Of a stretch of DNA of 32,000 nucleotides, positions 7,787-31,314 are shown piece by piece. The number at the start of each line of letters is the position of its first letter. The stretch's first letter is position 1. The DNA is taken from NCBI RefSeq assembly GCF_004138485.1, contig NZ_RYEV01000004.1, positions 338,803 through 370,802 on the forward strand. Reading direction: 5' to 3'. Position numbers and translations under genes: made by a program. The notes beneath the pieces are model-generated. The model was not told the origin of the DNA. It worked only from the letters and a program-made list of their open reading frames with translations, and did no database searches. Source of the stretch: Peristeroidobacter soli. Its GTDB lineage: Bacteria > Pseudomonadota > Gammaproteobacteria > Steroidobacterales > Steroidobacteraceae.

Positions 7787-8976
7787 TGGCTCGAATACTC
7801 GTTACGGACGGAGACAATCGCTCCGCGCTCGCAGCCACTCGCGCCCTGGGCGAGCTCGGGCACACCGTGTTCACGGCATCGGAGGCGCATCCATCGCTCG
7901 CCTCGGTGTCGAAACATTCGGCCGGCTTCGATGCCTACAGCAGCCCGTATCGCGCGCCGGATCAGTTCGTCAGAAACGTCGCAGCGATCGCCGAGCGCCG
8001 GCAGATCGACGTGCTGTTGCCGATGACGGAGATCACGACGATCCTGCTGACCCGTGCGCGGGATCTGCTGCCGCCGAAGGTTCGCATTCCCTTTCCGGAC
8101 GCCGACATCGTCGCGACCGCCGCGGATAAGTCGAAAGTGCTGCAGCTCGCCTCCGAGATCGGCGTGCCGATTCCGAAGACACTGGTGGTCGACGCGCCCG
8201 ATGAGATCGATCTGGTGTTACAGCGCGTGGAATATCCGGCCGTGTTCAAACCTGCGCGCTCCCGTGCCTGGAATGGCGAGCGCTGGATTTCGGGCGGCAC
8301 CGGCTACTCGCACACCGCCGAAGATCTGCGCGCGCGGCTCACCAAACTGGATCCCGCCATTTTCCCGGTGCTGATCCAGGAGCGCATTCAAGGCCCCGGC
8401 GTCGGTGTGTTCGTCTGTTGCGGCCAGGATTCGCAAGTGCTCGCGACCTTCGCGCATCGGCGCCTGCGAGAGAAGCCGCCGTCGGGCGGTGTGAGCGTGC
8501 TGTGTGAGAGCGCGCCGGTCGATCCGGTCGCGAAGGAACATGCCATTCATCTGCTTCGAAGCATCGGCTGGCTCGGCGTCGCCATGGTGGAGTTCAAGCA
8601 GGACTCGCGCACCGGCGCTTTGAAGCTGATGGAAATCAACGGCCGCTTCTGGGGGTCGTTGCAGCTCGCGATCGATGCCGGCGTGAATTTCCCGCGCCTC
8701 GCGGTGGATATCGCATTGGAACAGGCAAAGCCCATCGACAGCTACCGCGTCGGCGTGCGCTCGCGCTGGTTCTGGGGCGATGTGGACGCGATGGTCGCGC
8801 TGTTGTTGCGCAGTCGCTCGCAGCTCAACCTGCCCGAGGTCCATCCAGGCCGCTGGCGCACGCTGCTGAGCTTTCTGAAGCTGTGGCAACCGCGCACCCG
8901 TTACGAGCTCGAGCGTGCCGGCGATCCGCGTCCCGCGCTGCTCGCCGCGCGACGCTGGTTGCTCAATCGGGACTGA
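7786..8976 (+). CDS. ATP-grasp domain protein (carboxylate-amine/peptide ligase type)
   Basis: The track ORF 7162..8976 carries a non-coding-looking 208-aa extension that overlaps the deacetylase gene. An in-frame GTG at 7786 overlaps the upstream TAG (TAGTG) and gives VARILVTDGDNRSALAATRALGELGH, a typical ATP-grasp N-terminus. Other motifs are VFKPARS, LIQERIQG and GVAMVEFK...KLMEINGRFWGS. Confidence 0.8.
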   Translation: MARILVTDGDNRSALAATRALGELGHTVFTASEAHPSLASVSKHSAGFDAYSSPYRAPDQFVRNVAAIAERRQIDVLLPMTEITTILLTRARDLLPPKVRIPFPDADIVATAADKSKVLQLASEIGVPIPKTLVVDAPDEIDLVLQRVEYPAVFKPARSRAWNGERWISGGTGYSHTAEDLRARLTKLDPAIFPVLIQERIQGPGVGVFVCCGQDSQVLATFAHRRLREKPPSGGVSVLCESAPVDPVAKEHAIHLLRSIGWLGVAMVEFKQDSRTGALKLMEINGRFWGSLQLAIDAGVNFPRLAVDIALEQAKPIDSYRVGVRSRWFWGDVDAMVALLLRSRSQLNLPEVHPGRWRTLLSFLKLWQPRTRYELERAGDPRPALLAARRWLLNRD

Positions 8977-10317: not shown

Positions 10318-11498
10318 GAAGGTCTGCCGACGAGCGTCTGGTAGATTCGAGTCAGTTTCTCGGTGCGAACGTCGAACGAGTAGTTGCGCAGGATACCCTG
10401 GTGCGCGCGCTCCGCCATCCGCACGAAGTCCTGCGGTCGCTCCAGGAATTGCGCGATTCCGTCGGTGAGTTGCTGCAGCGTGGGCTGGATCAGCCAGCCG
10501 GATTCCTGGTGAGCAATGACTTCCGCGGTCCCGCCCACCGCCGTTGCGACGATCGGCACGCGCAGATACGCCGCCTCGAGGATCACGTTGGGCAACCCTT
10601 CGGTGAACGAGCTCTGCACGACCAGATCGATGTCAGCATACAGACGGGGCATGTCCTTCACGTAGCCGACGAATTCGACGCGCTCCTCCAGCCCCAAGTT
10701 CCTCGCCACCGAGCGCAGCTGTTCCTCGAGCGGCCCGATGCCCGCGAACTTCAGCCGCAGTTTCGGCCATCGCGGCGTCAGCGCGTGCATCGCGTTGAGC
10801 AGCATCTCCTGTCCCTTCTCCGGCGACAGGCGACCGACGTTCACCATCGTGACTTCGCCAGTTGGATCGATCGGACGACGCGGCTTGTTGACGGTCTCGC
10901 TGCCGTACGACTTGAGCACCAGGGCGTTACGCAACACCGTCGCCTGCGATTCCGGCAACCACCAGCGCGGCACCAGCGAGCGAGTCGCCTCCGACACGAT
11001 GATCACGTGATCGAAGCGCCGGAACATCATCTTGTCGAGCAGACGCACGACGCGCCGACGCCAGGTATTCGCGATCCAGCCATGCGCGGTCGCGACCAGG
11101 CGCAGCTTCGGCCGGCGGCGTTTGATGATCTGAGCGATCAGACTGGAGCGAAACTCGCTGGTGTGCAACAGGTCGATCTGCCGGTCATCGATGATCTGCA
11201 GAATGGGATCGATCAGCTCGTTGCCGAGCCGGCCATGATCGGCCAGTGCCGTCACGCTGATACCGCGCTGCCTCGCCGCGTCCACCAGCGGATGCTCGCC
11301 TTCGCGCTTCGCCACCAGCACGCCGATGTGAAATTCCACGCGCGCCGGATCGAGGTGCGAGCCGGTTTCGAGAATCGTGCGGCCCGGCCCGTCGACCCAG
11401 GGCGAATCGCGTAAGTGCAGGACGCGGATCGGCGGCTGGCCGACGTTGCGAGCAGCGTCCTGGTCGCGATCGGTCTGGAACTTCGGCTGCGTGCTCAT
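10314..11498 (-). CDS. Glycosyltransferase family 1 (PEP-CTERM/EpsH-locus sugar transferase type)
   Basis: 394-aa ORF with ATG at 11498. Contains IRVLHLRDSPWVDGPGR, GRLSPEKG and the EGLPNVILEAAYLRVPIV (E-x7-E) region. Confidence 0.85.
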   Translation of the reverse strand: MSTQPKFQTDRDQDAARNVGQPPIRVLHLRDSPWVDGPGRTILETGSHLDPARVEFHIGVLVAKREGEHPLVDAARQRGISVTALADHGRLGNELIDPILQIIDDRQIDLLHTSEFRSSLIAQIIKRRRPKLRLVATAHGWIANTWRRRVVRLLDKMMFRRFDHVIIVSEATRSLVPRWWLPESQATVLRNALVLKSYGSETVNKPRRPIDPTGEVTMVNVGRLSPEKGQEMLLNAMHALTPRWPKLRLKFAGIGPLEEQLRSVARNLGLEERVEFVGYVKDMPRLYADIDLVVQSSFTEGLPNVILEAAYLRVPIVATAVGGTAEVIAHQESGWLIQPTLQQLTDGIAQFLERPQDFVRMAERAHQGILRNYSFDVRTEKLTRIYQTLVGRPS

Positions 11499-11499
11499 G

Positions 11500-12630
11500 C
11501 TATTTCGGCCGCTGCGTCGGCTGCCACACTTCGACGCGATTGCCGACCAGCCACAAGGCCAAGGCCTTGAGCGCGGCCGCGTTCACGAGAACGAAGAAGG
11601 CGCTCAGGCGCACCAGGGTGAGACGCGCGGCGAGCGCGGGCCAGACCATGCCGGCGACCGCGGCCACGTACAACACGATCTGCACGACGAACAATCCCAG
11701 ATACAACGGCTGTCCGCGCAAGAGATAGGCCGCGACCAGGCACCCCACCATCGGCAGTGGCGCGAGCCAGCGCATCAGCTTGTGCGACCAGAGAATGAAT
11801 GAGAACGCCGGATGGCGGAACGGATTCAACAGGCCCACGTTGCCGAACAACGCGGTGATGCCTCGCAGGAACGTTCGTACCTTGCGAGTGAATTCGGCGC
11901 GCTGACTGGACGTGGCGGTCATCGAGCCGCGAGCCAGCGGCTCGGCGAGTGCACGCTTGCCCTGACGGACGGTGTTGAGCACGGACAGAAAGTCCGGGGC
12001 CATGCCCGAGCGGAACGGCTCGCACAGCTCGCGCCGCTGACCGTAGAAACATCCGCTCGCACCGGCGATGGAATGCAGTCGTGCCTCTTCCCGGCGCAAC
12101 AACAACTCCAGCTTGCCGTACAGGCCTTCGGTCTCCGAGCCCTCGATGTAATCCTCACCGGAGACGCAGCCGATCTCAGGATCGGTGAAATGCCCGACCA
12201 GATTTCGCAGCGAAGGACGATCGAGCAGGATGCCCGCGTCGGTGAACACGACGATCTCGCCGGTGGCGCGCTCCAGGCCCGCGTTCAGGCCCGAGGCTTT
12301 ACCGCCGCGCCCCTCCAGCGGCACGACGGTGACGAGGCCCTGCCCCGCCGCCATCGCTCGCTCCAGGCTGTCGTCGGTGCAGCCATCGCCAATCACCAGG
12401 ATCTGCATCTTGTCGCGCGGATAGTCCAGCGACAGCAGATTCTCGACCTTCGCGCCGATGCGCCGGGCTTCGTTGTGCACCGGCATGATGATGGTAACGG
12501 TCGGCTCGTGACGCACGTCGGCGACGTGCGCGCGTCGCCCGCCGAGCCGGTTGCAAGCAACCAGCACGAGGGGATAGATGGCGTACGGATACGCCACCAG
12601 CAACGCACAGATCCAGAACAACGCTTCCAC
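11500..12630 (-). CDS. Membrane-anchored glycosyltransferase family 2
   Basis: 376-aa ORF with GTG start. N-terminal TM helix, then VTIIMPVHNE, GDGCTDDS and VFTDAGILLD (the DxD-like region), followed by several C-terminal TM helices. This is a synthase-like topology. Confidence 0.8.
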   Translation of the reverse strand: MEALFWICALLVAYPYAIYPLVLVACNRLGGRRAHVADVRHEPTVTIIMPVHNEARRIGAKVENLLSLDYPRDKMQILVIGDGCTDDSLERAMAAGQGLVTVVPLEGRGGKASGLNAGLERATGEIVVFTDAGILLDRPSLRNLVGHFTDPEIGCVSGEDYIEGSETEGLYGKLELLLRREEARLHSIAGASGCFYGQRRELCEPFRSGMAPDFLSVLNTVRQGKRALAEPLARGSMTATSSQRAEFTRKVRTFLRGITALFGNVGLLNPFRHPAFSFILWSHKLMRWLAPLPMVGCLVAAYLLRGQPLYLGLFVVQIVLYVAAVAGMVWPALAARLTLVRLSAFFVLVNAAALKALALWLVGNRVEVWQPTQRPK

Positions 12631-12690
12631 GCAGATCGTCTCGCATCAGCAAACAAGCGGCGCGGCCCGTGCGCCCGATTGAAAATCAGC

Positions 12691-13680
12691 TCAGAGATTC
12701 AGTTCCGTGACGGGCTCGACCAGCACCGGCTTCAGGTGCATGTAGCGAGTCGCGCGACGCTTCGCCTCGATGTCGCGGAACACGTTCTGCGCCTGCTGAA
12801 CCGTGACACCGATGACCGGCGCCAGCTCTTCGGCGCTATGACCATTGTTGAGCGCGTACAGCGCCAGATCCATCTGCGCGTACGGCAACGCGAAGTAGAA
12901 CTCGTCCTGGCCCTGCGACAGGCTGTAAGTGTCCGTCGTCGGAATCGCGTCGCAGATCTCCTTCGGCAGCTGCATGTGACGCGCCAGCGCGTACACCTGC
13001 GACTTGTAGAGATGCGCGATCGGCTTCACGTCGGCGCTGCCGTCGCCGTTCTTCACGAAGAAGCCCTGGTCGTACTCCAGGCGGTTCGGCGTGCCGATGA
13101 CGGCGTAGTTCAGGCGGTCGGCATGGAAATACTCGACCGTCTTGCGGATGCGCTGCTTGTGATTGGTCGCCGCGACGATCTGCAGATACTCCTTCAGGCC
13201 CAGGCGCTCCTGCTTCATCTCGCCGCTCGGGGTCTGCACCACCAGCTGGAAATGATTGATCTGGCCTTCCAGACCGCCGCTGATGACGATCTTGTTCTTC
13301 CAGCCTTCGCCGTACTCAGGAAACACTTTGCGGATCGCATCGTCGCGCCACTTGTAACAGCCGATGCCTTCGAGCGCCGGCGCGATGTCGAACACTTCGT
13401 ACTTGATGCCCAGGTGCTCGGCGAGCTGACGGCCGCGCGAGGTGCTGAAGCCCGAGGAGTCTTTCTCAGGCAGCATCAGGCCATAGACCTTGTCCTTGCC
13501 CAGCGCCTTCACGCACAGCGCCGAGCTCACGGAGCTGTCGATGCCGCCGGACATGGCGCAGACGAAGCCGCGACGGCCCACGTCCTTGGATAGAATGGAG
13601 CGCAAGCGCGTAACGATGTGCTCGATGACGCGATCGTTGTCCATCTCCAGGACTTTCGGGTCGAGTTTGCGTGCGGCCAT
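12691..13680 (-). CDS. NAD synthetase (NadE)-family PP-loop ATP pyrophosphatase, ammonia-type, no glutaminase domain; paralog embedded in the EPS operon
   Basis: The track ORF starts at a TTG (13686). The ATG at 13680 has AAGAGGA 6 nt upstream and is preferred. The PP-loop motif is CAMSGGIDSSV. Length of about 329 aa and the C-terminal region are typical of the NAD_synthase family. Confidence 0.75.
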   Translation of the reverse strand: MAARKLDPKVLEMDNDRVIEHIVTRLRSILSKDVGRRGFVCAMSGGIDSSVSSALCVKALGKDKVYGLMLPEKDSSGFSTSRGRQLAEHLGIKYEVFDIAPALEGIGCYKWRDDAIRKVFPEYGEGWKNKIVISGGLEGQINHFQLVVQTPSGEMKQERLGLKEYLQIVAATNHKQRIRKTVEYFHADRLNYAVIGTPNRLEYDQGFFVKNGDGSADVKPIAHLYKSQVYALARHMQLPKEICDAIPTTDTYSLSQGQDEFYFALPYAQMDLALYALNNGHSAEELAPVIGVTVQQAQNVFRDIEAKRRATRYMHLKPVLVEPVTELNL

Positions 13681-13703
13681 GAACAATCCTCTTGAACCTG
13701 TTT

Positions 13704-15218
13704 TTAAGCCAGTTTGAAACGTTGAACCTTGCCCGAGGCCGTGCGCGGCAGCACCGCGGCGAACTCGACGATTTTAGGCACTTTGTAGCTGGCCAGCTGC
13801 TGGCGACAATGCGCCTTGATGCCACGCAAATCCGCCGGCGCGCCTTCGCGCAGCACGATCACGGCTTTGATGGACTGGCCCAGCACTTCATCGGCGATCC
13901 CGGTGACCGCCACTTCCTGGACGCCGGGGAACGTCGCGAGCACTTCCTCGACTTCCTGCGGGCTCACTCGGAACGCGCCGACCTTGATCATCTCGACAGC
14001 GCGGCCGTCGATATACAGAAACCCTTCGCTGTCGAGGTGACCGAGATCGCCGGTGTGCAACCAGCCGTCACGCAACACCTGCGAGGTGAGCTCCGGCTCG
14101 CGCCAGTAACCCAACATGATGTTCGGGCCGCGCGCGCAGATCTCACCGATCTCACCCGTCGGCACGACCTGGCCGTCGCTGCGCACTTCGATCTCGACCC
14201 CGGGCAGCGGCATGCCAACCGAACCGAGCTTGGCTTCGAGATGTTCCGGGGCGAGATAGCTCAGACGAGCGGTCGCCTCGGTCTGGCCGTACATGATGAA
14301 CACCTGAGTGTGCGGCAACTGTTGCCGCAGCTTCTCAATCTGCGCCCGCGGCATCGAGCCGCCGGCCTGCGTGAGATAACGCAGTTTGCCCAGATCGAAA
14401 TCGCTCAACTGACAGCGTCCCAGCAACAATGCGAACGTCGATGGCACGCCGGGGAAGCCGGTCACGCCCTCCTCCTGCATCTTCTTCAGCGTCTGCTGAG
14501 GGAATGCAAAGTTGTCTTCCAGCAGCAGCTGCGCGCCCGAGATCAGGTTGCTGTTGAGCACCGAGCTGCCGTAGGAAAAATGAAACGGCAGACCGCACAG
14601 CACTTTGTCGTTCGGCGTGATCTGCAGATAGGCGGCGATGGCGCGAGCATTGGCCACCAGATTGCCGTTGCTCAACAACACACCCTTCGGGCGCGACGTG
14701 GTGCCCGAGGTATAGATCATCATCGCCGGCGCTTCGATCTGCCCCTCGGGCAGATTCAACTCAGACTCAACCGCGCCCTCGCCCGTCAGCGCCGCACAGA
14801 GCGCATCGCATCCGGCGGGACCCGGCTGCAGATCGAGCGTCACCACCAGCGGCACGTTCGCACCGATCGCCGCACTCAGCGTGCTCCACTCCTGATGTTG
14901 CGGATCGGCGATGACCGCGCCACAGCCGGCATGCTCGATCTGTCGCGACAACACGCTGGCGCGCTCCTGCACGTTCAACGGCACGGCAACGCAGCCAGCG
15001 GCGATGACACCGAAGTAACTCGCCACGTAGTGCGGCGAGTTACGCACCAGCAAGGCCACGCGCGCGCCCGGCTCGAGCTCGCGCAGCCTGCCCTGCATGC
15101 AACCGACCGCACGACGCAGCTGCGCATACGTCCACACCCCGCCGTGCCACGACAACGCCGGTGCGTCCGGCATCTGCCGGGCGATCCAGTCGAAGTCGTG
15201 TACCAGGGAGGCGCTCAT
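13704..15218 (-). CDS. AMP-forming adenylating ligase (ANL superfamily; exosortase A-associated acyl-CoA/acyl-carrier ligase type)
   Basis: 504-aa ORF. ANL core motifs are present: MIYTSGTTSRPKGV, MYGQTEAT, HTGDLGHLDSEGFLYIDGR and the C-terminal SGKVQR. Confidence 0.9.
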   Translation of the reverse strand: MSASLVHDFDWIARQMPDAPALSWHGGVWTYAQLRRAVGCMQGRLRELEPGARVALLVRNSPHYVASYFGVIAAGCVAVPLNVQERASVLSRQIEHAGCGAVIADPQHQEWSTLSAAIGANVPLVVTLDLQPGPAGCDALCAALTGEGAVESELNLPEGQIEAPAMMIYTSGTTSRPKGVLLSNGNLVANARAIAAYLQITPNDKVLCGLPFHFSYGSSVLNSNLISGAQLLLEDNFAFPQQTLKKMQEEGVTGFPGVPSTFALLLGRCQLSDFDLGKLRYLTQAGGSMPRAQIEKLRQQLPHTQVFIMYGQTEATARLSYLAPEHLEAKLGSVGMPLPGVEIEVRSDGQVVPTGEIGEICARGPNIMLGYWREPELTSQVLRDGWLHTGDLGHLDSEGFLYIDGRAVEMIKVGAFRVSPQEVEEVLATFPGVQEVAVTGIADEVLGQSIKAVIVLREGAPADLRGIKAHCRQQLASYKVPKIVEFAAVLPRTASGKVQRFKLA

Positions 15219-15229
15219 GCGTGGCTCGA

Positions 15230-15484
15230 TCAGGCAGCCTGGCGCTTGGCAACGAAGGCGGCGATCTTGTTCACGCCGTCCAGGTTGTCCGGCACCATCT
15301 CCTCATCCTTCACCTTCACGCCCAGCTGCTCTTCGATGAAGAAGATGATTTCCAGCATGCCGGTGGAGTCGACGATGCCGCGCTCGAGCAGCGAGTCGTC
15401 GAGGCCGAGCGCCGACTTGTCATCGGTGAACAAATAATTTTCCAGGATGAAACCGCGGATCTGTTCGCGCAGCGCATCGGTCAT
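15230..15484 (-). CDS. Acyl/peptidyl carrier protein
   Basis: 84-aa ORF with GAGGA upstream. GIVDSTGMLEIIFFIEEQLG carries the phosphopantetheine-attachment Ser in a DSxG context. It is sandwiched between the amidotransferase and the ligase. Confidence 0.85.
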   Translation of the reverse strand: MTDALREQIRGFILENYLFTDDKSALGLDDSLLERGIVDSTGMLEIIFFIEEQLGVKVKDEEMVPDNLDGVNKIAAFVAKRQAA

Positions 15485-15507
15485 GAGTCATTCCTCGATT
15501 TACGAAC

Positions 15508-17433
15508 TTAAAATTTTTGGCCCGCGACGAACTGCGCGTGCCACAACTGAGTGGACAGGATGCCGACGAAGGCCATGTTGTCGCGAGCCGCCGGGACTTT
15601 GGCCCGTTGCAGTTTCGCGACGAGGCGCGTGACCTTGTCGGGGTCGAAGTAGCCAGTACGCGCCAGGGCCTGTGGGCTCATCAATTCTGTCACATATTCG
15701 GGCGTCCGATCGCCCACGAACGCCGCGGCGTCCGGGGCACGATACGGTTGCTTGTGTCGCTGCAGGATGGCGGCCGGCAAGCGGTCGCGCATCGCCTGCT
15801 TGAGCAGGTGCTTCTCCTTCAGCACGCGCATCTTGTAACGCGGGTGCAGACGGTTCGCGAATTCGATCAGGCGATGATCGAGGAACGGGAAGCGCCCCTC
15901 CACCGAGCTCGCCATCAGCATGCGATCGCCCTGCGCGGAGAGCAGATAGCTCGGCAGCAGCGTCTTCGCTTCCAGATACTCACCCCGGTTGAACCGGTGC
16001 CAGCCGCGCACTTGCCCCGGCAACGAGTCGCGGAAGCGCTCCACCGCCGAGCCGTCGACCCGGCCGCGGAAATCATCCGACCAGAACAGCTTGCATTGCG
16101 CGGTGGTCGCCCAGCGCGGCAGATGCGAAAAGCACGGATCGGCCGGATTCTGCAGGCCGACCCCGAAGAATTCCTTGAGATACGCCGCACTCTGCGCCGA
16201 GGTCAGGTTCAAGTACGGATACAGGCGCTTGAGCAACGCCGGGCGCCAGCTGGACTCGGGCTGCTGTGCCCAGAAATGGCGCACCTTGGCCTCTTTGAAG
16301 ATGTCATAGCCCCCCAGCACTTCATCGGCGCCTTCGCCCGTCAACACCACTTTCACGTTCGACCGGCGCACCAGCCCCGACAGCATCTGCATGGGCGCCG
16401 GCGCAGTGCGCAGGACGGGCATTTCGCTGTGATGGATGGTTCGCGGGAACGCGTTGGCGATATCCGCGGTCGAGCACTGGATGTGATTGTGAGAGGTTCG
16501 CAGGTAATCGACGACTGTACGTTGGTGCACGGATTCATCGAGACCGGCATCGTCGAAGCCGATGGAGAACGTGCGCAGGGTCTGCGGCACGCGCTCCTGT
16601 AATAACGCGACCAGCGTCGAGGAGTCCAGACCGCCGGACAGATAGGCACCGACCGGCACGTCCGCACGCAGGCGCAGACGCGTGGCATCGGACAGCACCT
16701 CACGCAGCTCCTGCTCCAGATCGGCCTGCGCCCCATGACGATGCGCGCCGGCTTCCGGAAAGCTCCACTCCCAATACTGACGGCGCTTCACGCTGCCGTT
16801 CTCGACGATGAGCATTTCACCCGGCGCGAGCTGATTCACGCCCTTGAACATGGTGCGCGGGGCGAGCGGCGCCCAGAACGTCATCAGCTCATCGAGTCCG
16901 TTCGGATCGAGCTCGGCCTTGACGGCGCCGCTGGCGAGAATGGACTTCACCTCGGAGGCGAACACCAGCTCGTCGCGAGTTTGTGCGTAATACAGAGGCA
17001 ATATTCCAGCGCGATCGCGCGCCAGCACCAGGCGACGCTTGGGCCGATCCCAGATCGCGAACGCGAACTGACCGTTCAACTGATCGACGAACCGGTCACC
17101 GAACTCCTCGTACATGTGCACGATCACTTCGGTGTCGGAGTGGGTATAGAACTGGTGACCGCGCGCCTCGAGGTCCTGGCGCAGCTCGATGTAATTGAAG
17201 ATCTCGCCGTTGTAGGTGATCCACACGGTGCGCTTGCCGTTGTGGATGGGCTGCGCGCCGCCGCCCAGATCGATGATGCTGAGACGCGCGTGGCCCAGGC
17301 CGACGCCGGGCTCGACGTGATAGCCGTCGCCATCCGGGCCCCGGTGCGCAATGGCCTTGACCATCCGCTCCAGACGGCTCTGCTCAGGCGCCCGCTGCGC
17401 GTCGAAATATAGGGTGCCTGCTATGCCACACAT
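15508..17433 (-). CDS. Asparagine synthase (glutamine-hydrolysing)-family amidotransferase, exosortase A system-associated type
   Basis: The start is moved to the Met-Cys at 17433 (MCGIAGTLYF), because the Ntn glutaminase needs Cys2; the track's 14-aa extension is rejected. The synthetase domain has the SGGLDSS PP-loop. Length is 641 aa. Confidence 0.9.
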   Translation of the reverse strand: MCGIAGTLYFDAQRAPEQSRLERMVKAIAHRGPDGDGYHVEPGVGLGHARLSIIDLGGGAQPIHNGKRTVWITYNGEIFNYIELRQDLEARGHQFYTHSDTEVIVHMYEEFGDRFVDQLNGQFAFAIWDRPKRRLVLARDRAGILPLYYAQTRDELVFASEVKSILASGAVKAELDPNGLDELMTFWAPLAPRTMFKGVNQLAPGEMLIVENGSVKRRQYWEWSFPEAGAHRHGAQADLEQELREVLSDATRLRLRADVPVGAYLSGGLDSSTLVALLQERVPQTLRTFSIGFDDAGLDESVHQRTVVDYLRTSHNHIQCSTADIANAFPRTIHHSEMPVLRTAPAPMQMLSGLVRRSNVKVVLTGEGADEVLGGYDIFKEAKVRHFWAQQPESSWRPALLKRLYPYLNLTSAQSAAYLKEFFGVGLQNPADPCFSHLPRWATTAQCKLFWSDDFRGRVDGSAVERFRDSLPGQVRGWHRFNRGEYLEAKTLLPSYLLSAQGDRMLMASSVEGRFPFLDHRLIEFANRLHPRYKMRVLKEKHLLKQAMRDRLPAAILQRHKQPYRAPDAAAFVGDRTPEYVTELMSPQALARTGYFDPDKVTRLVAKLQRAKVPAARDNMAFVGILSTQLWHAQFVAGQKF

Positions 17434-17555
17434 GCTGTTGAGTCGACTGAAAAGCTCGTCCGGCGCGAGCGGCAATTGTCCGGGATTTCGCTTTTTGCGG
17501 CGTGACCGGGGTCACGAGCACAGGCCGTGAACTGTCAGGCCCGGCGACACTCGCG

Positions 17556-18671
17556 CTATTCGCGTCCCGCCGCTGCCTGTCTGGCCTGGTTCCTTGCCCG
17601 CAAACGCTGCGCGAAGGCTCTCATTATGTCAGCGCCCAAGGCAACCATCCCTCGGCCGTTGTACGGATAGAATGCCAAGGTGCGATAGGCCCGCTCCTGC
17701 CGGGTCCAGATCGACAGCCACGGCTCGGCGCTGCCCAGCATCTCGAACGAGCTCAAGCGCTCCTCGAAGGCCGCATGCAGCGCGTCCCACATCAGCTGGA
17801 TGCCGGGTGAATGCTCGGCCCAGCGCTCGTCATAGCCGATCTTGAGCACCCACCAGCGCCCGGCATGCACGACGCCAATCTGCATGGCGATGGGCACGCC
17901 CTCCAGTCGCAGGAAGCACACTCGCAACTGCCCCTGTCGCGCCAGCCGTTGGGCGAGCTGCAGGAAAAATCCGCTCAGCCGGGAATTGGTCAGCAGGGCG
18001 CTGCCACCCCGGCCCTTCCAGCTCGCCGCCTCGACCCTCATGGCCTCGGCCATCGTGGACTCGACGGTATCCGGCCCGGGTTTGAGAATCTGGACATTGA
18101 CCGAGCCTGCCTTCTCGAGATTGCGACGCGCCCGGCGATAGTCCTGGCGCCGGCGCGACGACAGGCTCTGTAAATACTCCTCCCAGTTGGAAGTGATGGG
18201 CACGAACGGCGAGCCGGAGGCTTTGAACTCGAGCAACTGGCCCCGGCCGCGCGCGGCGCGCTTGAATGTTTTCAGCAGCGCCCCGTCGGCTTCGATCCGC
18301 TGCAGGACCAGCGGTCGGCCCAGGCCGATGACGGATCGACACAGCGCCGCCAGCGCGTCGTCGTCGCGATAGCCGAAGCCACAGGGCTCGAACAAGGTGG
18401 TCGCGCCGAGAATTTCCAGCCGCTCGACACCGCCCCCGTTCGTGACCCCCAGCGGCGCCAGCGCGACGATGTCATCGCCGCTTCGTGCCTGGACCACGCG
18501 CAACGCATCGGCGCCGTACAAACGTTCGGCGGCGACCAGCGTCCAATCGACGGATTGAGTGAATTCCTGCGCGATCTGCGGCAGCTGACGCCAGCGCGTC
18601 GCGAGCTCATCGGGGGAGTCGATCCGGCGCAGCGTCTCGACGGTGTAACTCGCCGCTGCGCCCCGGCTCAT
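17556..18671 (-). CDS. CelD/BioF2-like (FemAB-superfamily, GNAT-fold) acyltransferase
   Basis: 371-aa ORF. Contains WRQL near the N-terminus, RRRQDYRRARRNLEK, and ...LKIGYDERWAEHSPG, typical of the Acetyltransf_6-type domain. The start overlaps the upstream stop (ATGA). Confidence 0.75.
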   Translation of the reverse strand: MSRGAAASYTVETLRRIDSPDELATRWRQLPQIAQEFTQSVDWTLVAAERLYGADALRVVQARSGDDIVALAPLGVTNGGGVERLEILGATTLFEPCGFGYRDDDALAALCRSVIGLGRPLVLQRIEADGALLKTFKRAARGRGQLLEFKASGSPFVPITSNWEEYLQSLSSRRRQDYRRARRNLEKAGSVNVQILKPGPDTVESTMAEAMRVEAASWKGRGGSALLTNSRLSGFFLQLAQRLARQGQLRVCFLRLEGVPIAMQIGVVHAGRWWVLKIGYDERWAEHSPGIQLMWDALHAAFEERLSSFEMLGSAEPWLSIWTRQERAYRTLAFYPYNGRGMVALGADIMRAFAQRLRARNQARQAAAGRE

Positions 18672-19753
18672 TGCTGAGAAACGCGAGCCGCCAGCTCACG
18701 CGCGCCATTCAACGTCGCGCGCATGCCCCGCAGCCCCCAGCCACTGCCAGGAATGCTGGCCAACAATCGCAGCACCGACTCCTGGATGGATTTGCGCTCG
18801 GTATCGATCGAGGCGGCACGTTTGAGATAGGCACGCGCCTGGCCGCGACGGGCCGACAACAAATCCCGCCTCGCCGCCTGTAACAACAACCCGCGCTGCA
18901 CTTCATCGACCTTGTCGCCGAGCTTCGAATAGAACTCCCTATCGGCGCGCCACACCCGATCGATCATCGCGATCCGTCGGCCCAGTCGCACGCCCGGGTC
19001 GCCCCGAGTCAAACGCACGGCGTCCTCGTGACTGCGGTTGTAGGTGGTGGAGAGGTTCGTGTACACGCAGCCGCTCTGCTTCGAGAAGCGCGCGAAGAAT
19101 TCCCAATCGCCGCAGGTTGCGATGATTTCGGGCAGGCGCAGCTGGCCCAGCGCCGATTTGCGAATCAACGAGGCACTCGGCAGGACGTACGGACAGACCA
19201 GCGACGAGGCATAGATATCGCCACCGCAGACCATGAATTCCTCGCTCGGCACCTGCAACTGCGGCATTCCTTTGATGGACGCGAACGAGCGCTCCCAGCG
19301 ATAGGGTTCGATGCGACCCGGCACGTGATCGAGCCAGGTGCTCAGACCATCCGTGATCGGCAGGACATCCGACTCCGGCGTCGGGCCTTTGAAGATCAGG
19401 AAATTCGAGAACGTGAAGCCCACGTCGTTGAAATAGCGCAGCAGCGCGACCTGCAATTCGAGCTTGTAGGGCGCCCACAGATCGTCGCTGTCGAGCAGCG
19501 CGAGATACTCGCCTCTCGCTTGTTTGATGCCGAGATTGCGCGCGGCATTCACACCTGCGTTGGGGCGGCGCGTGTAGCGGATGCGATCGCCGTACTTCTG
19601 CACGGCGGCGGTGGTGTCGTCGGTCGAACCATCGTCGATGACGATGATCTCGGTGTTTTGATACGTCTGCGCCAATACCGTGTCGATCGCTTCGCAAACC
19701 AAAGCGGCACGGTTGTACGTCGGAATGACGACACTGACCAGCGGTGCACTCAT
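18668..19753 (-). CDS. Glycosyltransferase family 2
   Basis: 361-aa ORF. Contains VSVVIPTYNRA, IVIDDGSTDDT and LLDSDDLW (DxD). There are ATGA overlaps at both ends. Confidence 0.9.
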   Translation of the reverse strand: MSAPLVSVVIPTYNRAALVCEAIDTVLAQTYQNTEIIVIDDGSTDDTTAAVQKYGDRIRYTRRPNAGVNAARNLGIKQARGEYLALLDSDDLWAPYKLELQVALLRYFNDVGFTFSNFLIFKGPTPESDVLPITDGLSTWLDHVPGRIEPYRWERSFASIKGMPQLQVPSEEFMVCGGDIYASSLVCPYVLPSASLIRKSALGQLRLPEIIATCGDWEFFARFSKQSGCVYTNLSTTYNRSHEDAVRLTRGDPGVRLGRRIAMIDRVWRADREFYSKLGDKVDEVQRGLLLQAARRDLLSARRGQARAYLKRAASIDTERKSIQESVLRLLASIPGSGWGLRGMRATLNGARELAARVSQQ

Positions 19754-21078
19754 GAGGACGGATCCGTCGTCTTCGATGTTTCAGCCGCCGCTTCCTTGTT
19801 CGCATATGGCGAGGGCCGCGGGCGATTCAACTTGCGACGCAGGCGACCCAGATTCCGCCGCACCCAGCGCCAGCCAGTGGCGCGCAGCGCGTTCGGCAGG
19901 CTGTGATAGATGCTCACCGTCACGTTGCTGCGAGACACGTTGGCGAAGCGATCCTTGAAGGCCTCCTCGCCGATGGTGAAGTCGAGCTCGACTCGCGAGC
20001 GCTGCAGGCCGTCCTCGATGATCTTGCGGGTCAGCAGCAACCCCGGTGAATGTTCGGCGTACTGCACTTCGAAGGACGGCTTGTACCAGATGATGCTGCC
20101 GAAATAATCGAAGCCGAAATGAAACGCGATCGGCTGGCCGTTGAACTCGACCACCGAGAACAGCAGCCAGCCCGCCGAATGCAGCGCTGCTGCGAGGGCC
20201 AGATAGAACGTGCGCTGGCTGCCCGCATCGAACAGGCTCGGCCGTCCGGCGGCGTGCCAGCGACGCGCATGCTGATCGAAGAACGCCGGCAGCAGCGCCT
20301 GAATCTCGCTCAGCGCCGACACGTTGCGAAAGCGCACTTCGCCGCGCGAGGAAAACCAGTTGAGCGGCCGCTTGAGGCTGTATTTCTTGAGCAGCTTCTC
20401 GGCACCGGGACGATCGGCTTCCAGCCGCAACGCCGGGCAGCGCAGTTGCGCTTCCTGGACGAAATACAGACCGCGCCCCTCGCCCGCCTTGTGCAGCTCA
20501 TCGAGCGTGCTCGACTGGCTCGGCACATTGCTCAGCCAGCAACTGCGCCAGCGCGAGGCATGCGCACGCAGAAATTTACATATGCTGACGATGGCTGCCG
20601 GCTTGTCGTAAGGGAGCACGAAGTCCTGGTAGTCGGCATTGCCGGTACCGACGAACTCCAGCCGCCGGCCGTGCCAGGCGAGACGGTGGATCATCATGGC
20701 GCCGAAGCCGATGACGCGGCCTTCCCGCCGCAGCAGCAGGAAGAACAATTCGTGGGCCGAGCCGAAGGTCTGCCACCAGGCGTCGAACCATTCGTAGGTC
20801 TGGAAGATCGAATTGGTCTCGTTATGGGAGACCAGGTCGTTCCATTCCTGGGCGGTCAGCGGGATTTGCTCGCGTCGCTCGATCAGCTCGACGGCGATGG
20901 GGGCATTGCTGGAGACATCCGTCGCCAACGGCCGCACGACGGCCGGGGCATCCACGCCACCCGTCAAAGCCGCCGCGCTTACCGACAATGAAGCCATTGC
21001 GGTCCCTGCAGGAACAGAACGCATCGACATGCACCCGAGGTGGCGTTGCTGAGAGATTTTGTCGCCACACCCCGACAC
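19750..21078 (-). CDS. CelD/BioF2-like (FemAB-superfamily, GNAT-fold) acyltransferase, second copy
   Basis: Contains EWNDLVSHNETNSIFQTYEWFDAWWQTFG and ...WYKPSFEVQYAEHSPG. The start is uncertain: GTG at 21078 (the longest ORF) or ATG at 21030, 21024 or 20997. The N-terminal ~30-55 aa have no counterpart in the paralog. Confidence 0.7.
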   Translation of the reverse strand: MSGCGDKISQQRHLGCMSMRSVPAGTAMASLSVSAAALTGGVDAPAVVRPLATDVSSNAPIAVELIERREQIPLTAQEWNDLVSHNETNSIFQTYEWFDAWWQTFGSAHELFFLLLRREGRVIGFGAMMIHRLAWHGRRLEFVGTGNADYQDFVLPYDKPAAIVSICKFLRAHASRWRSCWLSNVPSQSSTLDELHKAGEGRGLYFVQEAQLRCPALRLEADRPGAEKLLKKYSLKRPLNWFSSRGEVRFRNVSALSEIQALLPAFFDQHARRWHAAGRPSLFDAGSQRTFYLALAAALHSAGWLLFSVVEFNGQPIAFHFGFDYFGSIIWYKPSFEVQYAEHSPGLLLTRKIIEDGLQRSRVELDFTIGEEAFKDRFANVSRSNVTVSIYHSLPNALRATGWRWVRRNLGRLRRKLNRPRPSPYANKEAAAETSKTTDPSS

Positions 21079-21114: not shown

Positions 21115-22017
21115 TCACACGGACGCTGCGGCGAGTCGACCGACCTGGGCGGCCTCGAGCTGAGAACGCAGCACTTCCTTGACGGTGGTGAACCTGAATT
21201 CACCGATCAGCTTCGCCAGCCGCGCCTCACACACATCCAGGTTCGTGTAATGGCGGAATCTGGATAGCCAGCTCGCGTTGAAGCGCGGCTGCTCCGCGTC
21301 GATCTCCCACGGATGCAGGTAGAAGATGAACGGCTGCTGCTGTCGTTCGTTAATGGAACGCAGGCCCCAGCGCGTGAACCAGTACGGCAGCAAGCGGAAA
21401 TAGCCGCCGCCCGCGACCGGCACGCGCCGGCCGAACAACTCGGCCGTCGACAACGGAAACTCGACGATGCTCTGACCATTCTTTGCATGCATCAGTCCGG
21501 GGCGCGTCGAGGCGCCCGGAATTCCATAACGATCGTGCGCGATCGGAAAAATACTGGAGTCGTAACGGAAGCCCAACTCACAAAGGATGTCGATGGCCCA
21601 CAACGAACGTGCGGTGATCGAATAACTCGCCGCGCGATAGCCGAGCACCGGCGCGCCGATCAGATCCTCCAGCATCGCTTTGGACTCGCGCGTCTCCTGA
21701 CGAAACACTTCCGGCGTCTGCCGATACACCAGTTCGTGCGTCAGACCGTGACAGGCGACCTCGTGACCTGCCGCGTGAATGCGCTTGATCAGTTCCGGGG
21801 AGCGCTTCGCGACCCAGCCGAGCACGAAGAACGTCGCGCGCACGCCGTTCCTGCCGAATAGTTCCAGCAAACGATGGGTGCTCTGCTCGGCGCGATATTC
21901 CATCGCGTCCCATTGATCGCGCCGGATGACTTCCGCCAGCGCGGAGACATGGAAGTAATCTTCCACATCCACGGTCATGGCATTCGCGGTCATCGTGGTG
22001 TCGTGCCTCTGACTCAT
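21115..22017 (-). CDS. Polysaccharide deacetylase, PEP-CTERM-locus subfamily
   Basis: 300-aa ORF. MTVDVEDYFHV, ATFFVLGW and HEVACHGLTHE match the XrtA/PEP-CTERM-locus deacetylase family as I recall it (TIGR03006). ATGA overlap with the upstream gene. Confidence 0.85.
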   Translation of the reverse strand: MSQRHDTTMTANAMTVDVEDYFHVSALAEVIRRDQWDAMEYRAEQSTHRLLELFGRNGVRATFFVLGWVAKRSPELIKRIHAAGHEVACHGLTHELVYRQTPEVFRQETRESKAMLEDLIGAPVLGYRAASYSITARSLWAIDILCELGFRYDSSIFPIAHDRYGIPGASTRPGLMHAKNGQSIVEFPLSTAELFGRRVPVAGGGYFRLLPYWFTRWGLRSINERQQQPFIFYLHPWEIDAEQPRFNASWLSRFRHYTNLDVCEARLAKLIGEFRFTTVKEVLRSQLEAAQVGRLAAASV

Positions 22018-23342
22018 CGGAAACCGCCACCTGCGGCGGACGCGTCCTGAGCGCCCCAGTAATAAGCGAGCGTGACGAAGGCCCGGTTTTCAGTGAACTC
22101 GTTGTTGCCGTCGCGAGTGTTGCGGTCGTAGCGCTCGAGCATGAAGCGCATGCCCAATCGGCTCCACGCACGCCAGTTCAGCGTCGCGGCGAAGCGCAGC
22201 TCATCGTTCTCCTGGTCCGCATTCACGAACTTCTCATTGTCCAGGGTCGCTCGCAGATCGAGCGTCAAGGTGCTCGCCATGCGTCGTGAGACCCCGGCCG
22301 TGAAGCTGCTGCGCTTGCTGTCGAATTGGGTGGCGGACTCGTAGCTGTCTTTGGTGTGCGAACCACCGAGCAGGAAGCTGGTACGGCCGCGCAGATAGGT
22401 CCATTCCAAAGATACCAGCTGGCTCTTGAACGGATCGGACGTGGCGGTGATTTGACCCGCGCCGCCACCGACCACGTTGCCCGTCAGCTGCGCACGCAGC
22501 GAGTCGCCCGCGTCGCCCAACTGTTGGCCGAGCGTCAGGCGCAAGGTCGACGCCGCCGTCAGTTCGCGCGTCACGAATATATTGATCAGCGCGCTGCCCT
22601 GCTTGTCGCTGCCATCGCGCTGCAGCCAGGTGTAGCCCACGTTGGCGTCGATGGTGGTGCGCGAGCCATCCAGACCCCAGCCGACGAACACGCTGTCACG
22701 ATCGTAGTCGGTATTGAATGCATCGGCGAAATCGACGCTCTCGGTCACCGCATTCAACGACAGCTCGGTGCGCGGATTGGGGCGACGGCCGATCGCGAGG
22801 CCCGCGGTGGTGCGCTCGGCATCGAGCGGACTGTCCTGATAGTTCGTCGACGACCAGCGCCCGAACAACCGACCGAAGCCGGTCGAGCCGAAGCGCATCG
22901 TGAGATCGGGACCGGTCGAGAAATAATTCAGGTCTTCACGCGTCGCCGGCGTGCTCGCGGCGAACGGATCGGACTGCGCCTGACCGAAGGAATCCTGCAC
23001 CACCCAGTTCAGGGTCTCGGGCACGATGCCGAACGCCAATGTGCCATTGGCCGTGCCGACCACCTCGCTGTCGTAGGTGTTGTCCATGTATTCGAAATAG
23101 GAAAGATCGACGACGGCATCGCCGCGCAGACGACGCGTGCGCTCCTGCCACAGCAGGTCGAGCCCCACCGTGCCGATGGTCTCGCTGGTCTCGTCGGTGG
23201 CGACGCGGGTGATGTTGTCGGAGTAGCCGACGCCCGCTTCGGCGGAGGCGCTGATATCGGCTCGTGCCGGCGCGCCTGCGATCAACGCCATGACACCGGC
23301 CGCAGCCGGCGCTGCAACCCAATTACGCCGCGTGTGCCCCAT
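22014..23342 (-). CDS. Outer-membrane beta-barrel protein, PEP-CTERM system-associated (putative EPS porin)
   Basis: The start is moved to the ATG at 23342, with AAGG upstream. This gives the signal peptide MGHTRRNWVAAPAAAGVMALIAGAPARA|D. The longer track ORF would overlap the kinase gene by 119 nt. The mature part has alternating-hydrophobicity strands rich in G/S/T/D/Y/F throughout. Confidence 0.7.
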   Translation of the reverse strand: MGHTRRNWVAAPAAAGVMALIAGAPARADISASAEAGVGYSDNITRVATDETSETIGTVGLDLLWQERTRRLRGDAVVDLSYFEYMDNTYDSEVVGTANGTLAFGIVPETLNWVVQDSFGQAQSDPFAASTPATREDLNYFSTGPDLTMRFGSTGFGRLFGRWSSTNYQDSPLDAERTTAGLAIGRRPNPRTELSLNAVTESVDFADAFNTDYDRDSVFVGWGLDGSRTTIDANVGYTWLQRDGSDKQGSALINIFVTRELTAASTLRLTLGQQLGDAGDSLRAQLTGNVVGGGAGQITATSDPFKSQLVSLEWTYLRGRTSFLLGGSHTKDSYESATQFDSKRSSFTAGVSRRMASTLTLDLRATLDNEKFVNADQENDELRFAATLNWRAWSRLGMRFMLERYDRNTRDGNNEFTENRAFVTLAYYWGAQDASAAGGGFR

Positions 23343-23406
23343 GTACCTTGCCCTTCCCGATCGGCCATGACCCGAGTCGCGGCCATGACGTTTCTTTGAG
23401 ATCGAC

Positions 23407-31233: not shown

Positions 31234-31314
31234 TCTAGCGGGCCATCTCAGTGGACGATGCCGTACTTGATCATTTAGTGGACCATCTCAGTGCGCGATG
31301 CCGTACTTATCCAT
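31234..31314 (-). repeat. Tandem 40/41-nt duplication of the prsR 3' end plus linker, creating an 8-codon mini-ORF (31248..31274, MIKYGIVH) between prsR and xrtA
   Basis: Direct comparison of 31238-31274 with 31278-31314 gives 30/37 identical positions. Each unit, read on the minus strand, is ATG..AAGTACGGCATCGnnCACTGAGATGGnCCnCTA. The next ATG after unit 2 is the xrtA start. Confidence 0.9.

Follow-up and report, generated by a model that had tools for sequence, protein, structure and literature searches.

The closest described counterpart of the genes reported here is an operon on pSymB of Sinorhizobium meliloti, in which asnB, an acyl carrier protein (ACP) gene, an acyl-CoA ligase gene and nadE follow one another between aldo/keto reductase genes and minCDE. 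We compared this operon with four genes at positions 12691-17433 of a 32,000-nucleotide stretch of DNA from Peristeroidobacter soli (contig NZ_RYEV01000004.1, positions 338,803 to 370,802; the whole stretch is referred to as the window), which encode an AsnB-type amidotransferase, a carrier protein, an adenylating ligase and a NadE-like protein. In S. meliloti the ligase gene smb20650 is co-transcribed with the ACP gene smb20651 (PMC7232532). According to PMC7232532, which cites Ramos-Vega et al. (2009), acylated SMb20651 was obtained when SMb20650 was added to E. coli making holo-SMb20651; SMb20651 works as an ACP. SMb20650 cannot replace FadD and makes no oleoyl-CoA in vivo (PMC7232532). The operon reference, as cited in PMC7232532 and PMC9386255, is Ramos-Vega et al. 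(2009, Microbiology 155:257). A DNA search located the same operon DNA on pSymB of strain 1021, and the operon region (our locus L081) contained no polysaccharide or XrtA genes. The abstract of the 2009 paper is said to list asnB, an ACP gene, a ligase gene and a gene for a presumed NAD synthetase of the NH3-dependent type; the acyl forms seen in E. coli were reportedly C12:0 and C18:0. Our literature search found no later paper that gives the S. meliloti operon a product, in agreement with a preliminary description of the window, made from the letters alone, which knew of no demonstrated product for such genes.

The four-gene cassette and the XrtA locus around it

The open reading frame (ORF) listing placed four ORFs in a row on the minus strand at 12691-17433, separated by gaps of 23, 11 and 23 nt:

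15508-17433, minus strand: AsnB-type glutamine-hydrolysing amidotransferase, 641 aa; Cys2 nucleophile, PP-loop SGGLDSS
15230-15484, minus strand: carrier protein, 84 aa; GIVDSTG, phosphopantetheine site Ser40 in D-S-T-G-x-L-E
13704-15218, minus strand: ANL-superfamily adenylating ligase, 504 aa; YTSGTTSRPKG, YGQTE, TGDLG, GKVQR
12691-13680, minus strand: NadE-like PP-loop ATP pyrophosphatase, 329 aa; SGGIDSS, no glutaminase domain

The listing and the family scans agreed with the gene identities, motifs and spacing described earlier, and the four-gene observation is confirmed. The ATG at 17433 starts AsnB with MCGIAG; the upstream TTG at 17475 would bury the N-terminal Cys. For the NadE-like gene an alternative start, the TTG at 13686, lies two codons 5' of the ATG.

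When the window proteins were compared with the S. meliloti set, all four were similar over nearly their full length, with identities of 51% (AsnB), 42% (ACP), 37% (ligase) and 56% (NadE-like). The genes are co-directional, have short gaps and stand in the order of L081, and the S. meliloti ACP reads DSTGVLE, the motif DSTGxLE being common to it and the window carrier. We read the region as one copy of a four-gene cassette that is autonomous and horizontally mobile, in this case placed inside a Steroidobacter XrtA polysaccharide locus. The cassette has been known since 2009, and the window holds a further copy of it, not an undescribed exosortase-A variant.

The XrtA locus was recognised by its NCBIfam matches. 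Upstream of the cassette and on the same strand, XrtA-EpsI was found at 29719-31233 (233.5 bits, cut-off 208), and PrsT, an XrtA-type export protein, a chain-length determinant, a tyrosine kinase and a deacetylase likewise passed their cut-offs. The locus also has a PrsR fragment and an outer-membrane protein on the cassette strand, and a 503-aa ORF at 22014-23525 matched TIGR03016 weakly. The cassette is flanked by two Acetyltransf_6 proteins of the GCN5-related N-acetyltransferase (GNAT) fold and a family 2 glycosyltransferase (GT2) upstream, and by a GT2, a family 4 glycosyltransferase (GT4) and a Wzy_C/TIGR03097-like protein downstream. Positions 12691-17433 lie within an XrtA/PEP-CTERM locus. 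The Pfam and NCBIfam scans of the window covered ORFs of at least 200 aa; from 21115 upward, where six ORFs (to 31233) and a partial gene (31288-31995) lie, NCBIfam alone was used.

The ligase and the amidotransferase had at first been assigned to the exosortase-A families, and these families had been attributed to the PEP-CTERM/EpsH work. The ligase scored 343.6 bits with TIGR03098 (exosortase-A-associated acyl-CoA ligase; cut-off 592.35) and AsnB scored 460.9 bits with TIGR03108 (XrtA/PEP-CTERM amidotransferase; cut-off 816.9). Because these scores are far below the cut-offs, both window proteins are paralogues and not members of the two families. The 2006 PEP-CTERM/EpsH paper does not deal with a ligase, ACP, amidotransferase or decarboxylase, and the words ligase, acyl carrier, asparagine, NAD, decarboxylase and amidotransferase are all absent from it; the attribution to that work therefore rests on later family models only. 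Among the scanned window ORFs of at least 200 aa (NCBIfam only from 21115 upward), no Pfam or NCBIfam match to a pyridoxal phosphate (PLP) decarboxylase or an alpha/beta hydrolase was seen, as had been noted before. According to the preliminary description, a PLP decarboxylase and two alpha/beta hydrolases are the usual companions in the exosortase-A cassette; in the scanned ORFs these companions were unseen and the NadE-like gene was present instead. The literature search found no relevant paper joining exosortase loci with NAD synthetase, ACP and asparagine synthase, and a paper on five ACPs of Ralstonia had no bearing on the cassette. Papers on floc and polysaccharide clusters list AsnB paralogues alone, which are common in such clusters (PMC3684757).

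The NadE-like protein, its partners and their distribution

The NadE-like protein scored 491.6 bits with the NCBIfam model NF002048/PRK00876 (cut-off 313) and 139.8 bits with TIGR00552 (cut-off 63.65), and it has the PP-loop and catalytic residues of NadE. Pfam found NAD_synthase only, as expected for a protein that had been described as lacking a glutaminase domain. Compared with the solved NH3-dependent NAD synthetases, ~60 aa are inserted at about residues 107-165, and around this insertion the match to NadE in the Protein Data Bank (PDB) splits into two pieces. In the AlphaFold2 model, which had a pLDDT of 94.8, the insertion was predicted to form a helix (110-121) and three strands (130-161) that make a three-stranded sheet. 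A Foldseek search with this model returned NadE structures only, the best of them 2e18, at identities of 16-25% and with TM-scores of up to 0.87 (target-normalised). For the residue comparison the family was aligned with B. subtilis NadE, using a reference sequence identical to PDB 1EE1. The positions S46, D50, S51, R139, T157, E162, D173 and K186 of B. subtilis NadE were conserved in the family alignment; these are the PP-loop, Mg and catalytic positions. The positions Y32, F129, T169, H257 and K258 differed in the NadE-like family, in an alignment that is uncertain at the C-terminus; they belong to the residues that bind nicotinic acid adenine dinucleotide (NaAD) in the B. subtilis structures. 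Judged by its fold and conserved residues, the NadE-like protein should almost certainly act as an ATP-dependent carboxylate-adenylating, amide-forming catalyst.

Relatives of the NadE-like protein were sought in two ways. A HMMER search of cluster representatives gave 328 clusters at E ≤1e-30, and a genome scan restricted to one genome per species, with a seed alignment of 9 sequences (an alignment of 38 sequences being too diverse), gave 80 loci from Gamma- and Betaproteobacteria, Gemmatimonadota, Myxococcota, Desulfobacterota, Verrucomicrobiota and others. In the 71 loci that extend 2 kb or more upstream of the NadE-like gene, a ligase gene was found directly upstream and on the same strand in 64, an ACP gene in 61 and both in 60; AsnB was present in 44 of the 53 loci with at least 6.5 kb upstream. 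Rearranged cassettes were recovered with hidden Markov models (HMMs) built from orthologues. Besides the window type (AsnB-ACP-Lig-NadE-like), the orders AsnB-Lig-ACP-NadE-like in Burkholderiales and ACP-Lig-AsnB-NadE-like in Azospirillum were observed. A PrmC/HemK-like methyltransferase gene is inserted between the ligase and NadE-like genes at L027:9069-9980 (+) and in ~12 other loci (L013, L015, L025 and L043 among them). Its product is a homologue of N5-glutamine methyltransferases (TIGR03534, 202 bits, cut-off 199), which hints that an amide or amine nitrogen of the product is methylated in some lineages.

Identity to the window proteins, taken as the median over 46 complete cassettes, was 64% for the NadE-like protein, 53% for the ACP, 52% for AsnB and 45% for the ligase. 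The NadE-like identities ranged from 58 to 73% across phyla, and the pairwise values stayed within a narrow band of 60-70% whatever the taxonomy. As the most conserved member, the NadE-like protein belongs to the core of the cassette and is not an add-on. The preliminary description had seen a NadE paralogue outside the known set and hence perhaps an undescribed variant; the gene is instead the defining member of a widespread four-gene cassette. Within 10 kb of the 61 loci of at least 12 kb, polysaccharide-type genes were found in 32 and XrtA-type export genes in 8. The cassette also occurs in many loci without XrtA genes. The block deacetylase-GNAT-GT2-GNAT-cassette-GT2-GT4-Wzy is shared by the Steroidobacter loci L001 and L002 and, in part, by a Chromatiales metagenome-assembled genome (MAG; L009). 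Some further neighbourhoods were observed in passing. On a plasmid of Shinella zoogloeoides (L083:658-2829 and 10527-16331) the cassette has an exopolysaccharide transport gene on one side and on the other a phospholipid block with a CDP-alcohol phosphatidyltransferase, a lysophospholipid acyltransferase, a phosphatidate cytidylyltransferase and a PAP2 phosphatase. The NadE-like gene of L041 adjoins ispG, proS and an aldo/keto reductase gene; reductases of this kind are likewise encoded beside the S. meliloti operon and, in L056, after the NadE-like gene. The NadE-like proteins of L059 (Fibrobacter) and L061 (Krumholzibacteriia) are 81% identical.

The NadE-like gene was also found in plasmid records, namely on 116 plasmids and chromids of which 76 are from Sinorhizobium, and many copies lie on mobilisable or conjugative plasmids. 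In S. meliloti, pSymB can be removed once engA and tRNA-Arg have been moved to the chromosome (PMC4207669). Since pSymB is dispensable apart from these two genes, its NadE-like copy is not the only NAD synthetase of S. meliloti. Azospirillum brasilense has two characterised glutamine-dependent NadE enzymes (PMC7196632), and it also has the cassette, with a gene of the c5 family described below, on plasmid p1. The dispensability of pSymB, the two other NadE enzymes of A. brasilense and the many plasmid copies all disfavour a housekeeping role, and most likely the window NadE-like protein is not the housekeeping NAD synthetase.

In several proteins the NadE-like domain is fused to parts of the same machinery. 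A fusion of an ANL ligase with the NadE-like domain (P0127) was found in three clusters, down to 49% identity, and on at least eleven contigs. Further fusions join it to a 4'-phosphopantetheinyl transferase (PPTase; P0124) and to GATase/AsnB (P0140, P0268), and a metagenomic protein (P0134, L084:8001-9533) combines NadE-like, AMP-binding_C and PP-binding domains. Among billions of proteins P0134 is the only one with this architecture, yet it was assembled independently in two data sets. In its sequence the position of the A10 lysine appears to be Asn (..SPDGNIDITSLP). Its neighbours (L084:3129-12594) are an ordinary protein with an adenylation domain and a peptidyl carrier protein domain (A-PCP), a small GNAT, a GDSL lipase, two alpha/beta hydrolases and an Sfp-type PPTase. 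By these fusions the NadE-like enzyme is physically tied to carrier-protein chemistry.

The ligase matched the Pfam families AMP-binding (8.8e-77) and AMP-binding_C. Its closest solved structures in a PDB search were feruloyl-, oxalate- and malonyl-CoA synthetases, FadD5 and MenE, and it has the motif DGWLHTGD of the acyl-CoA-synthetase type, so that an organic acid is likelier as its substrate than a D-Ala-like amino acid. The carrier protein had no Pfam match at 1e-3; it matched NCBIfam ACP models down to 2.4e-14, none of them above its cut-off, and aligned at the phosphopantetheine Ser with peptidyl and D-alanyl carrier proteins in the PDB. Ser40 was invariant in 40 of 40 carrier-protein orthologues, and the carrier motif D-S-T-G-x-L-E and the ligase motifs A3, A5, A8 and A10 were essentially invariant across orthologues. 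The best NCBIfam match of the carrier, the ACP of ornithine-lipid OlsHI, was rejected (53.5 bits, cut-off 130), as that GH3-like planctomycete pathway is a different system. We infer that the ligase is a dedicated acyl-ACP synthetase for the adjoining carrier protein, which upholds the general idea, put forward earlier, of a ligase that loads its own carrier. The analogy to Dlt drawn at the same time holds for a ligase plus a carrier in general terms; against it stand the acyl-CoA-synthetase type of the ligase, the score of the carrier with the DltC model NF003464 (31.4 bits, cut-off 68) and the lack of any Pfam or NCBIfam match to DltB (MBOAT) or DltD among the scanned window ORFs (NCBIfam only from 21115 upward).

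AsnB scored 508.6 bits with TIGR01536 (cut-off 267.1) and matched Asn_synthase (3.5e-94) and GATase_7 (1.5e-46) in Pfam; the N-terminal Cys in MCGIAG, the GATase domain and the synthetase PP-loop SGGLDSS of the AsnB family are all present. The closest structures were the hydroxyamidotransferase 7YLZ and E. coli AsnB. Among 50 cassette orthologues of AsnB, Cys2 was found in 49 and SGGLDS in all 50.

Candidates for a transferase and for an acceptor-forming enzyme adjoin the cassette:

17556-18671, minus strand: GNAT-fold protein (Acetyltransf_6, FemAB-like), 371 aa, PF13480 9e-30; directly upstream of AsnB
19750-21078, minus strand: second Acetyltransf_6 GNAT-fold protein, 442 aa, PF13480 1.6e-27
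21115-22017, minus strand: XrtA-system polysaccharide deacetylase, TIGR03006 401.1 bits, cut-off 276.2

The GNAT protein at 17556-18671, whose arrangement is the same in the Steroidobacter loci L001 and L002 and which lies nearby in L009, is a candidate acyltransferase for the carrier-bound unit. The one at 19750-21078, conserved with the cassette in L001, L002 and L009, is a possible cassette partner, and the deacetylase could create a free sugar amine as acceptor. In other genomes the commonest extra gene encodes a protein of ~350 aa, termed c5, which directly follows the NadE-like gene or precedes AsnB in ~33 of the 80 loci (for example L039:10978-12036 (+), L065:10982-12013, L018:11013-12065 and L082:8867-10108); only matches with E <1e-20 were counted, since the second-round HMM was contaminated by overlapping stop-to-stop ORFs. 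The c5 proteins had no Pfam or NCBIfam match. Their core HRSLGPAL...LLYGFPN...VFKRxGY is GNAT-like and is accompanied by a conserved C-terminal D-E-D, and in a comparison with the PDB the c5 profile matched nothing but GNAT-fold acyltransferases (best match N-myristoyltransferase, E = 0.006). c5 is likely the transferase of the cassette in the genomes that have it.

The left part of the window holds, on the plus strand, a third FemAB/Acetyltransf_6 protein at 2986-4065, a DegT-type sugar aminotransferase at 4078-5283, a second polysaccharide deacetylase at 6758-7786 and an ATP-grasp enzyme at about 7789-8976. With these genes the locus holds an unusual wealth of enzymes for making or modifying amide bonds on amino sugars. 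An ORF at 167-1003 (minus strand), where the locus ends, has weak polysaccharide-lyase matches in Pfam (PF14099, 1.4e-8) and may encode a depolymerase for the same polymer.

Two terminator-like hairpins are weak markers of the cassette boundaries:

17454-17470, minus strand: terminator-like hairpin, ~20 nt upstream of the AsnB start codon (5' boundary)
12659-12675, minus strand: terminator-like hairpin in the 60-nt gap past the NadE-like stop codon (3' boundary)

The terminator-like consensus scan gave 12 sites where 8.6 +/- 2.3 were expected, which is not significant. Just upstream of the first hairpin, in the 122-nt gap between the GNAT and AsnB genes, a 7-bp inverted repeat with a 2-nt spacer (CGTGACC CC GGTCACG; 17501-17516, minus strand) could be an operator, or else be due to chance. 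The promoter scan gave no sigma-70 or sigma-54 signals above chance, and no Rfam family was matched.

A possible pathway and its alternatives

The observations can be joined in a pathway in which the ligase loads the carrier, the two amidating enzymes make carboxamides and a GNAT transfers the unit, the S. meliloti-type cassette having come to lie in an XrtA locus. We put this forward tentatively, as an account that may well be right but for which our confidence stays a little under even. In the first step, the ANL ligase would adenylate a carboxylic acid, probably of the type used by acyl-CoA synthetases rather than an amino acid, and thioesterify it to the phosphopantetheine arm of the 84-aa carrier; such acylation has been shown for the S. 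meliloti orthologues and by analogy may be expected of the window proteins. In the second step, AsnB with glutamine and the NadE-like enzyme with ammonia would each turn a free carboxylate into a carboxamide by way of an adenylate; this carboxylate could be part of the carrier-bound unit, of a precursor or of the molecule formed directly from it. This chemistry is predicted from the conserved catalytic residues, and the gene linkage and the domain fusions suggest its connection to the carrier pathway. In the third step, to which the gene neighbourhood points, a GNAT-fold acyltransferase would move the unit to an amine acceptor, the candidates being the adjoining Acetyltransf_6 proteins in the window genome and c5 in many others. 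In the window locus the acceptor would most probably be an amino sugar of the XrtA polysaccharide, freed by the deacetylases at 21115-22017 and 6758-7786. The carboxylates would belong to the cassette's own small molecule and not to uronic acids of a polymer, because the amidating enzymes are retained where polysaccharide genes are missing and because some cassettes add the glutamine-N5-methyltransferase-like enzyme.

Several observations weigh against this pathway. The loaded acid and the amidated carboxylates are guesses, no member of the cassette having a known product. The four S. meliloti genes have no GNAT neighbour; c5 is absent from the window, and hhalign detected no distant relationship between c5 and the window Acetyltransf_6 proteins (probabilities of 0.5% and 6.9%). 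As polysaccharide genes accompany only about half of the longer loci, a polysaccharide acceptor would be specific to the context of the window. The positions N133, R137, Y144, F167, F168, K170 and D177 of B. subtilis NadE, which count among the NaAD contacts, are kept in the family, which leaves room for a true NAD synthetase activity. In addition, the NadE-like genes at L041:10001-10945, L059:3631-4617 and L061:10001-10963 have no ACP, ligase or AsnB gene within 10 kb and sit among housekeeping genes, so the family may have such an activity; these stand-alone copies are 63-64% identical to the window copy and up to ~70% identical to cassette-linked copies. Together with the NF002048 and TIGR00552 scores, the NadE fold and the many conserved active-site residues, the kept contacts and the stand-alone members in Desulfobacula, Fibrobacter and Krumholzibacteriia MAGs speak for a true NH3-dependent NAD+ synthetase (PRK00876) that serves, for example, local NAD+ supply, with only the ligase, the ACP and AsnB making the product. 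We consider this unlikely, given the near-obligate adjacency to ACP and ligase across phyla, the recurrent ligase fusions and the single fusions to a PPTase and to a PCP, the ~60-aa insertion and the loss of the residues at Y32, F129, T169, H257 and K258; moreover, S. meliloti can dispense with the gene, in A. brasilense it is redundant, and no solved or assayed member of the family was found. The fusions could also be read differently, the NadE-like protein being a carrier-directed adenylating enzyme whose acyl-adenylate reacts not with ammonia but with the phosphopantetheine thiol or with an amine on the unit that the carrier holds. P0134, which joins the NadE-like domain to an adenylation C-terminal subdomain and a PCP, with Asn apparently replacing the A10 lysine, and which has a normal A-PCP protein, hydrolases and an Sfp-type PPTase as neighbours, would fit such an enzyme, and the median identity of 64% for the NadE-like protein against 45% for the ligase would fit a hub with several partners. 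This is nevertheless improbable: the P0134 architecture is unique, the standard cassette has one carrier and already a ligase to load it, and the Asp aligned with D173 of B. subtilis NadE, a residue implicated in handling ammonia, is conserved.

Two other explanations differ in the acid and in the acceptor. The preliminary description had proposed that the four genes are a NadE-containing, Dlt-like variant of the exosortase-A set, in which AsnB and NadE amidate uronic acids of the polysaccharide. The cassette does lie in a bona fide XrtA locus and on the same strand, TIGR03098 and TIGR03108 are the second-best NCBIfam matches, XrtA-type export genes occur near some of the longer loci, and AsnB paralogues are common in polysaccharide clusters. 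However, the scores are far below the cut-offs of both families, the ligase and carrier depart from Dlt, with neither an MBOAT nor a DltD match among the scanned ORFs, and the NadE-like protein is fused to ligase, PPTase and PCP, not to sugar enzymes. As the amidating enzymes also travel with the ACP and ligase where polysaccharide genes are missing, in S. meliloti and in about half of the 61 loci, the amidation of uronic acids is disfavoured, and the proposal as a whole seems to us very doubtful. Alternatively, the carrier may deliver a fatty acyl group that ends up in a lipid (for example a lipid anchor or an N-acyl amino-acid amide), with the amidating enzymes neutralising head-group carboxylates in an AsnO-like manner. 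Both its annotation and the discussion in PMC7232532, which also covers the acylation of its ACP in E. coli, put the S. meliloti ligase in the long-chain type, the best PDB match of the c5 profile is an N-myristoyltransferase, AsnB reached 409.8 bits with TIGR03104 (below the cut-off), and the Shinella cassette adjoins phospholipid genes, besides a polysaccharide transport gene. On the other hand, SMb20650 makes no oleoyl-CoA, acylation in E. coli may reflect the substrates available there and not the native ones, the operon has been linked to no lipid, and all neighbours in the window are polysaccharide genes; we give the lipid explanation a small chance.

The loading, amidation and GNAT transfer outlined above can be generalised to the family as a whole. 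The PRK00876 'NAD synthase' family would then be a non-NAD hub of carrier-dependent amidation, acting by PP-loop adenylation of an ACP-linked carboxylate, with GNATs attaching the amide-bearing unit; we regard this as a conjecture whose chances of being right are rather modest. The rare form that joins NadE-like, adenylation C-terminal subdomain and PCP may be a PP-loop substitute for an adenylation domain. If the hub reading is true, thousands of genomes have a mis-named gene and an undescribed envelope modification. The annotation 'NAD(+) synthase' is probably wrong for a very large family, likely as a systematic mis-annotation: the gene that bears it is the most constrained part of the cassette, is repeatedly fused to carrier-protein machinery and is dispensable in at least one well-studied organism. 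The cassette is a conserved mobile unit across many bacterial phyla, often joined to the GNAT-like c5 family and to polysaccharide loci, exosortase loci among them, and the product of this orphan operon, known since 2009, becomes directly testable. For the study of XrtA systems, the implication is that an acyl decoration containing an amide may be present on some exosortase-associated polymers.

Comparison with known systems

With the NH3-dependent NadE enzymes (B. subtilis 1KQP/1NSY, P. horikoshii 2E18) the NadE-like protein shares the PP-loop fold, the motif SGGxDS and the Mg and catalytic residues, and it passes the cut-offs of NF002048 and TIGR00552. It differs from them by its structural-alignment identity of 16-25%, by the inserted helix and three-stranded sheet of ~60 aa, by the replacement of several putative NaAD contacts and by its place in an ACP/ligase operon, to whose partners its relatives are sometimes fused. 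The exosortase-A families TIGR03098 and TIGR03108 comprise an ANL ligase and an AsnB-type amidotransferase that are homologous to the window proteins and, like them, encoded in XrtA/PEP-CTERM loci. The window proteins nevertheless score below the family cut-offs, the companions named in the preliminary description were unseen among the scanned ORFs, and a NadE-like gene stands in their place.

Like DltA/DltC, the window pair consists of an adenylating enzyme of ~500 aa and a carrier of ~80 aa in a cell-envelope polymer locus, and weak DltC matches were obtained. Unlike DltA, the ligase is of the acyl-CoA-synthetase type, the carrier stays below the DltC cut-off and no DltB or DltD match accompanies them. 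The dlt operon has the order dltA-dltB-dltC-dltD, whereas in the window the carrier gene precedes the ligase gene. In the AsnO/Ngg system of N-acetylglutaminylglutamine amide (NAGGN; TIGR03104), a GNAT-type acyltransferase has an AsnB-family partner, which amidates a carboxylate on the product of the acylation; a similar pairing is envisaged for the window. The window AsnB scored below the cut-off of this NAGGN amidotransferase model (570.1 bits), and the AsnO/Ngg pathway has no carrier protein, ligase or NadE-like enzyme.

The AcpR/AasR pair of bacterial sphingolipid synthesis likewise combines a dedicated ACP, a co-encoded FadD-like synthetase and one consuming pathway enzyme (PMC9386255). 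The consumer there is serine palmitoyltransferase, whereas the conserved partners in the window are two ATP-dependent amidating enzymes. Of all these systems the S. meliloti operon asnB-SMb20651-SMb20650-nadE is the closest, with the same four families in the same order and orientation, the same tight spacing, the ACP motif DSTGxLE and a ligase that is FadD-like but not a FadD. It differs in that it stands alone, whereas the window copy is set in an XrtA locus beside Acetyltransf_6 GNATs, deacetylases and glycosyltransferases.

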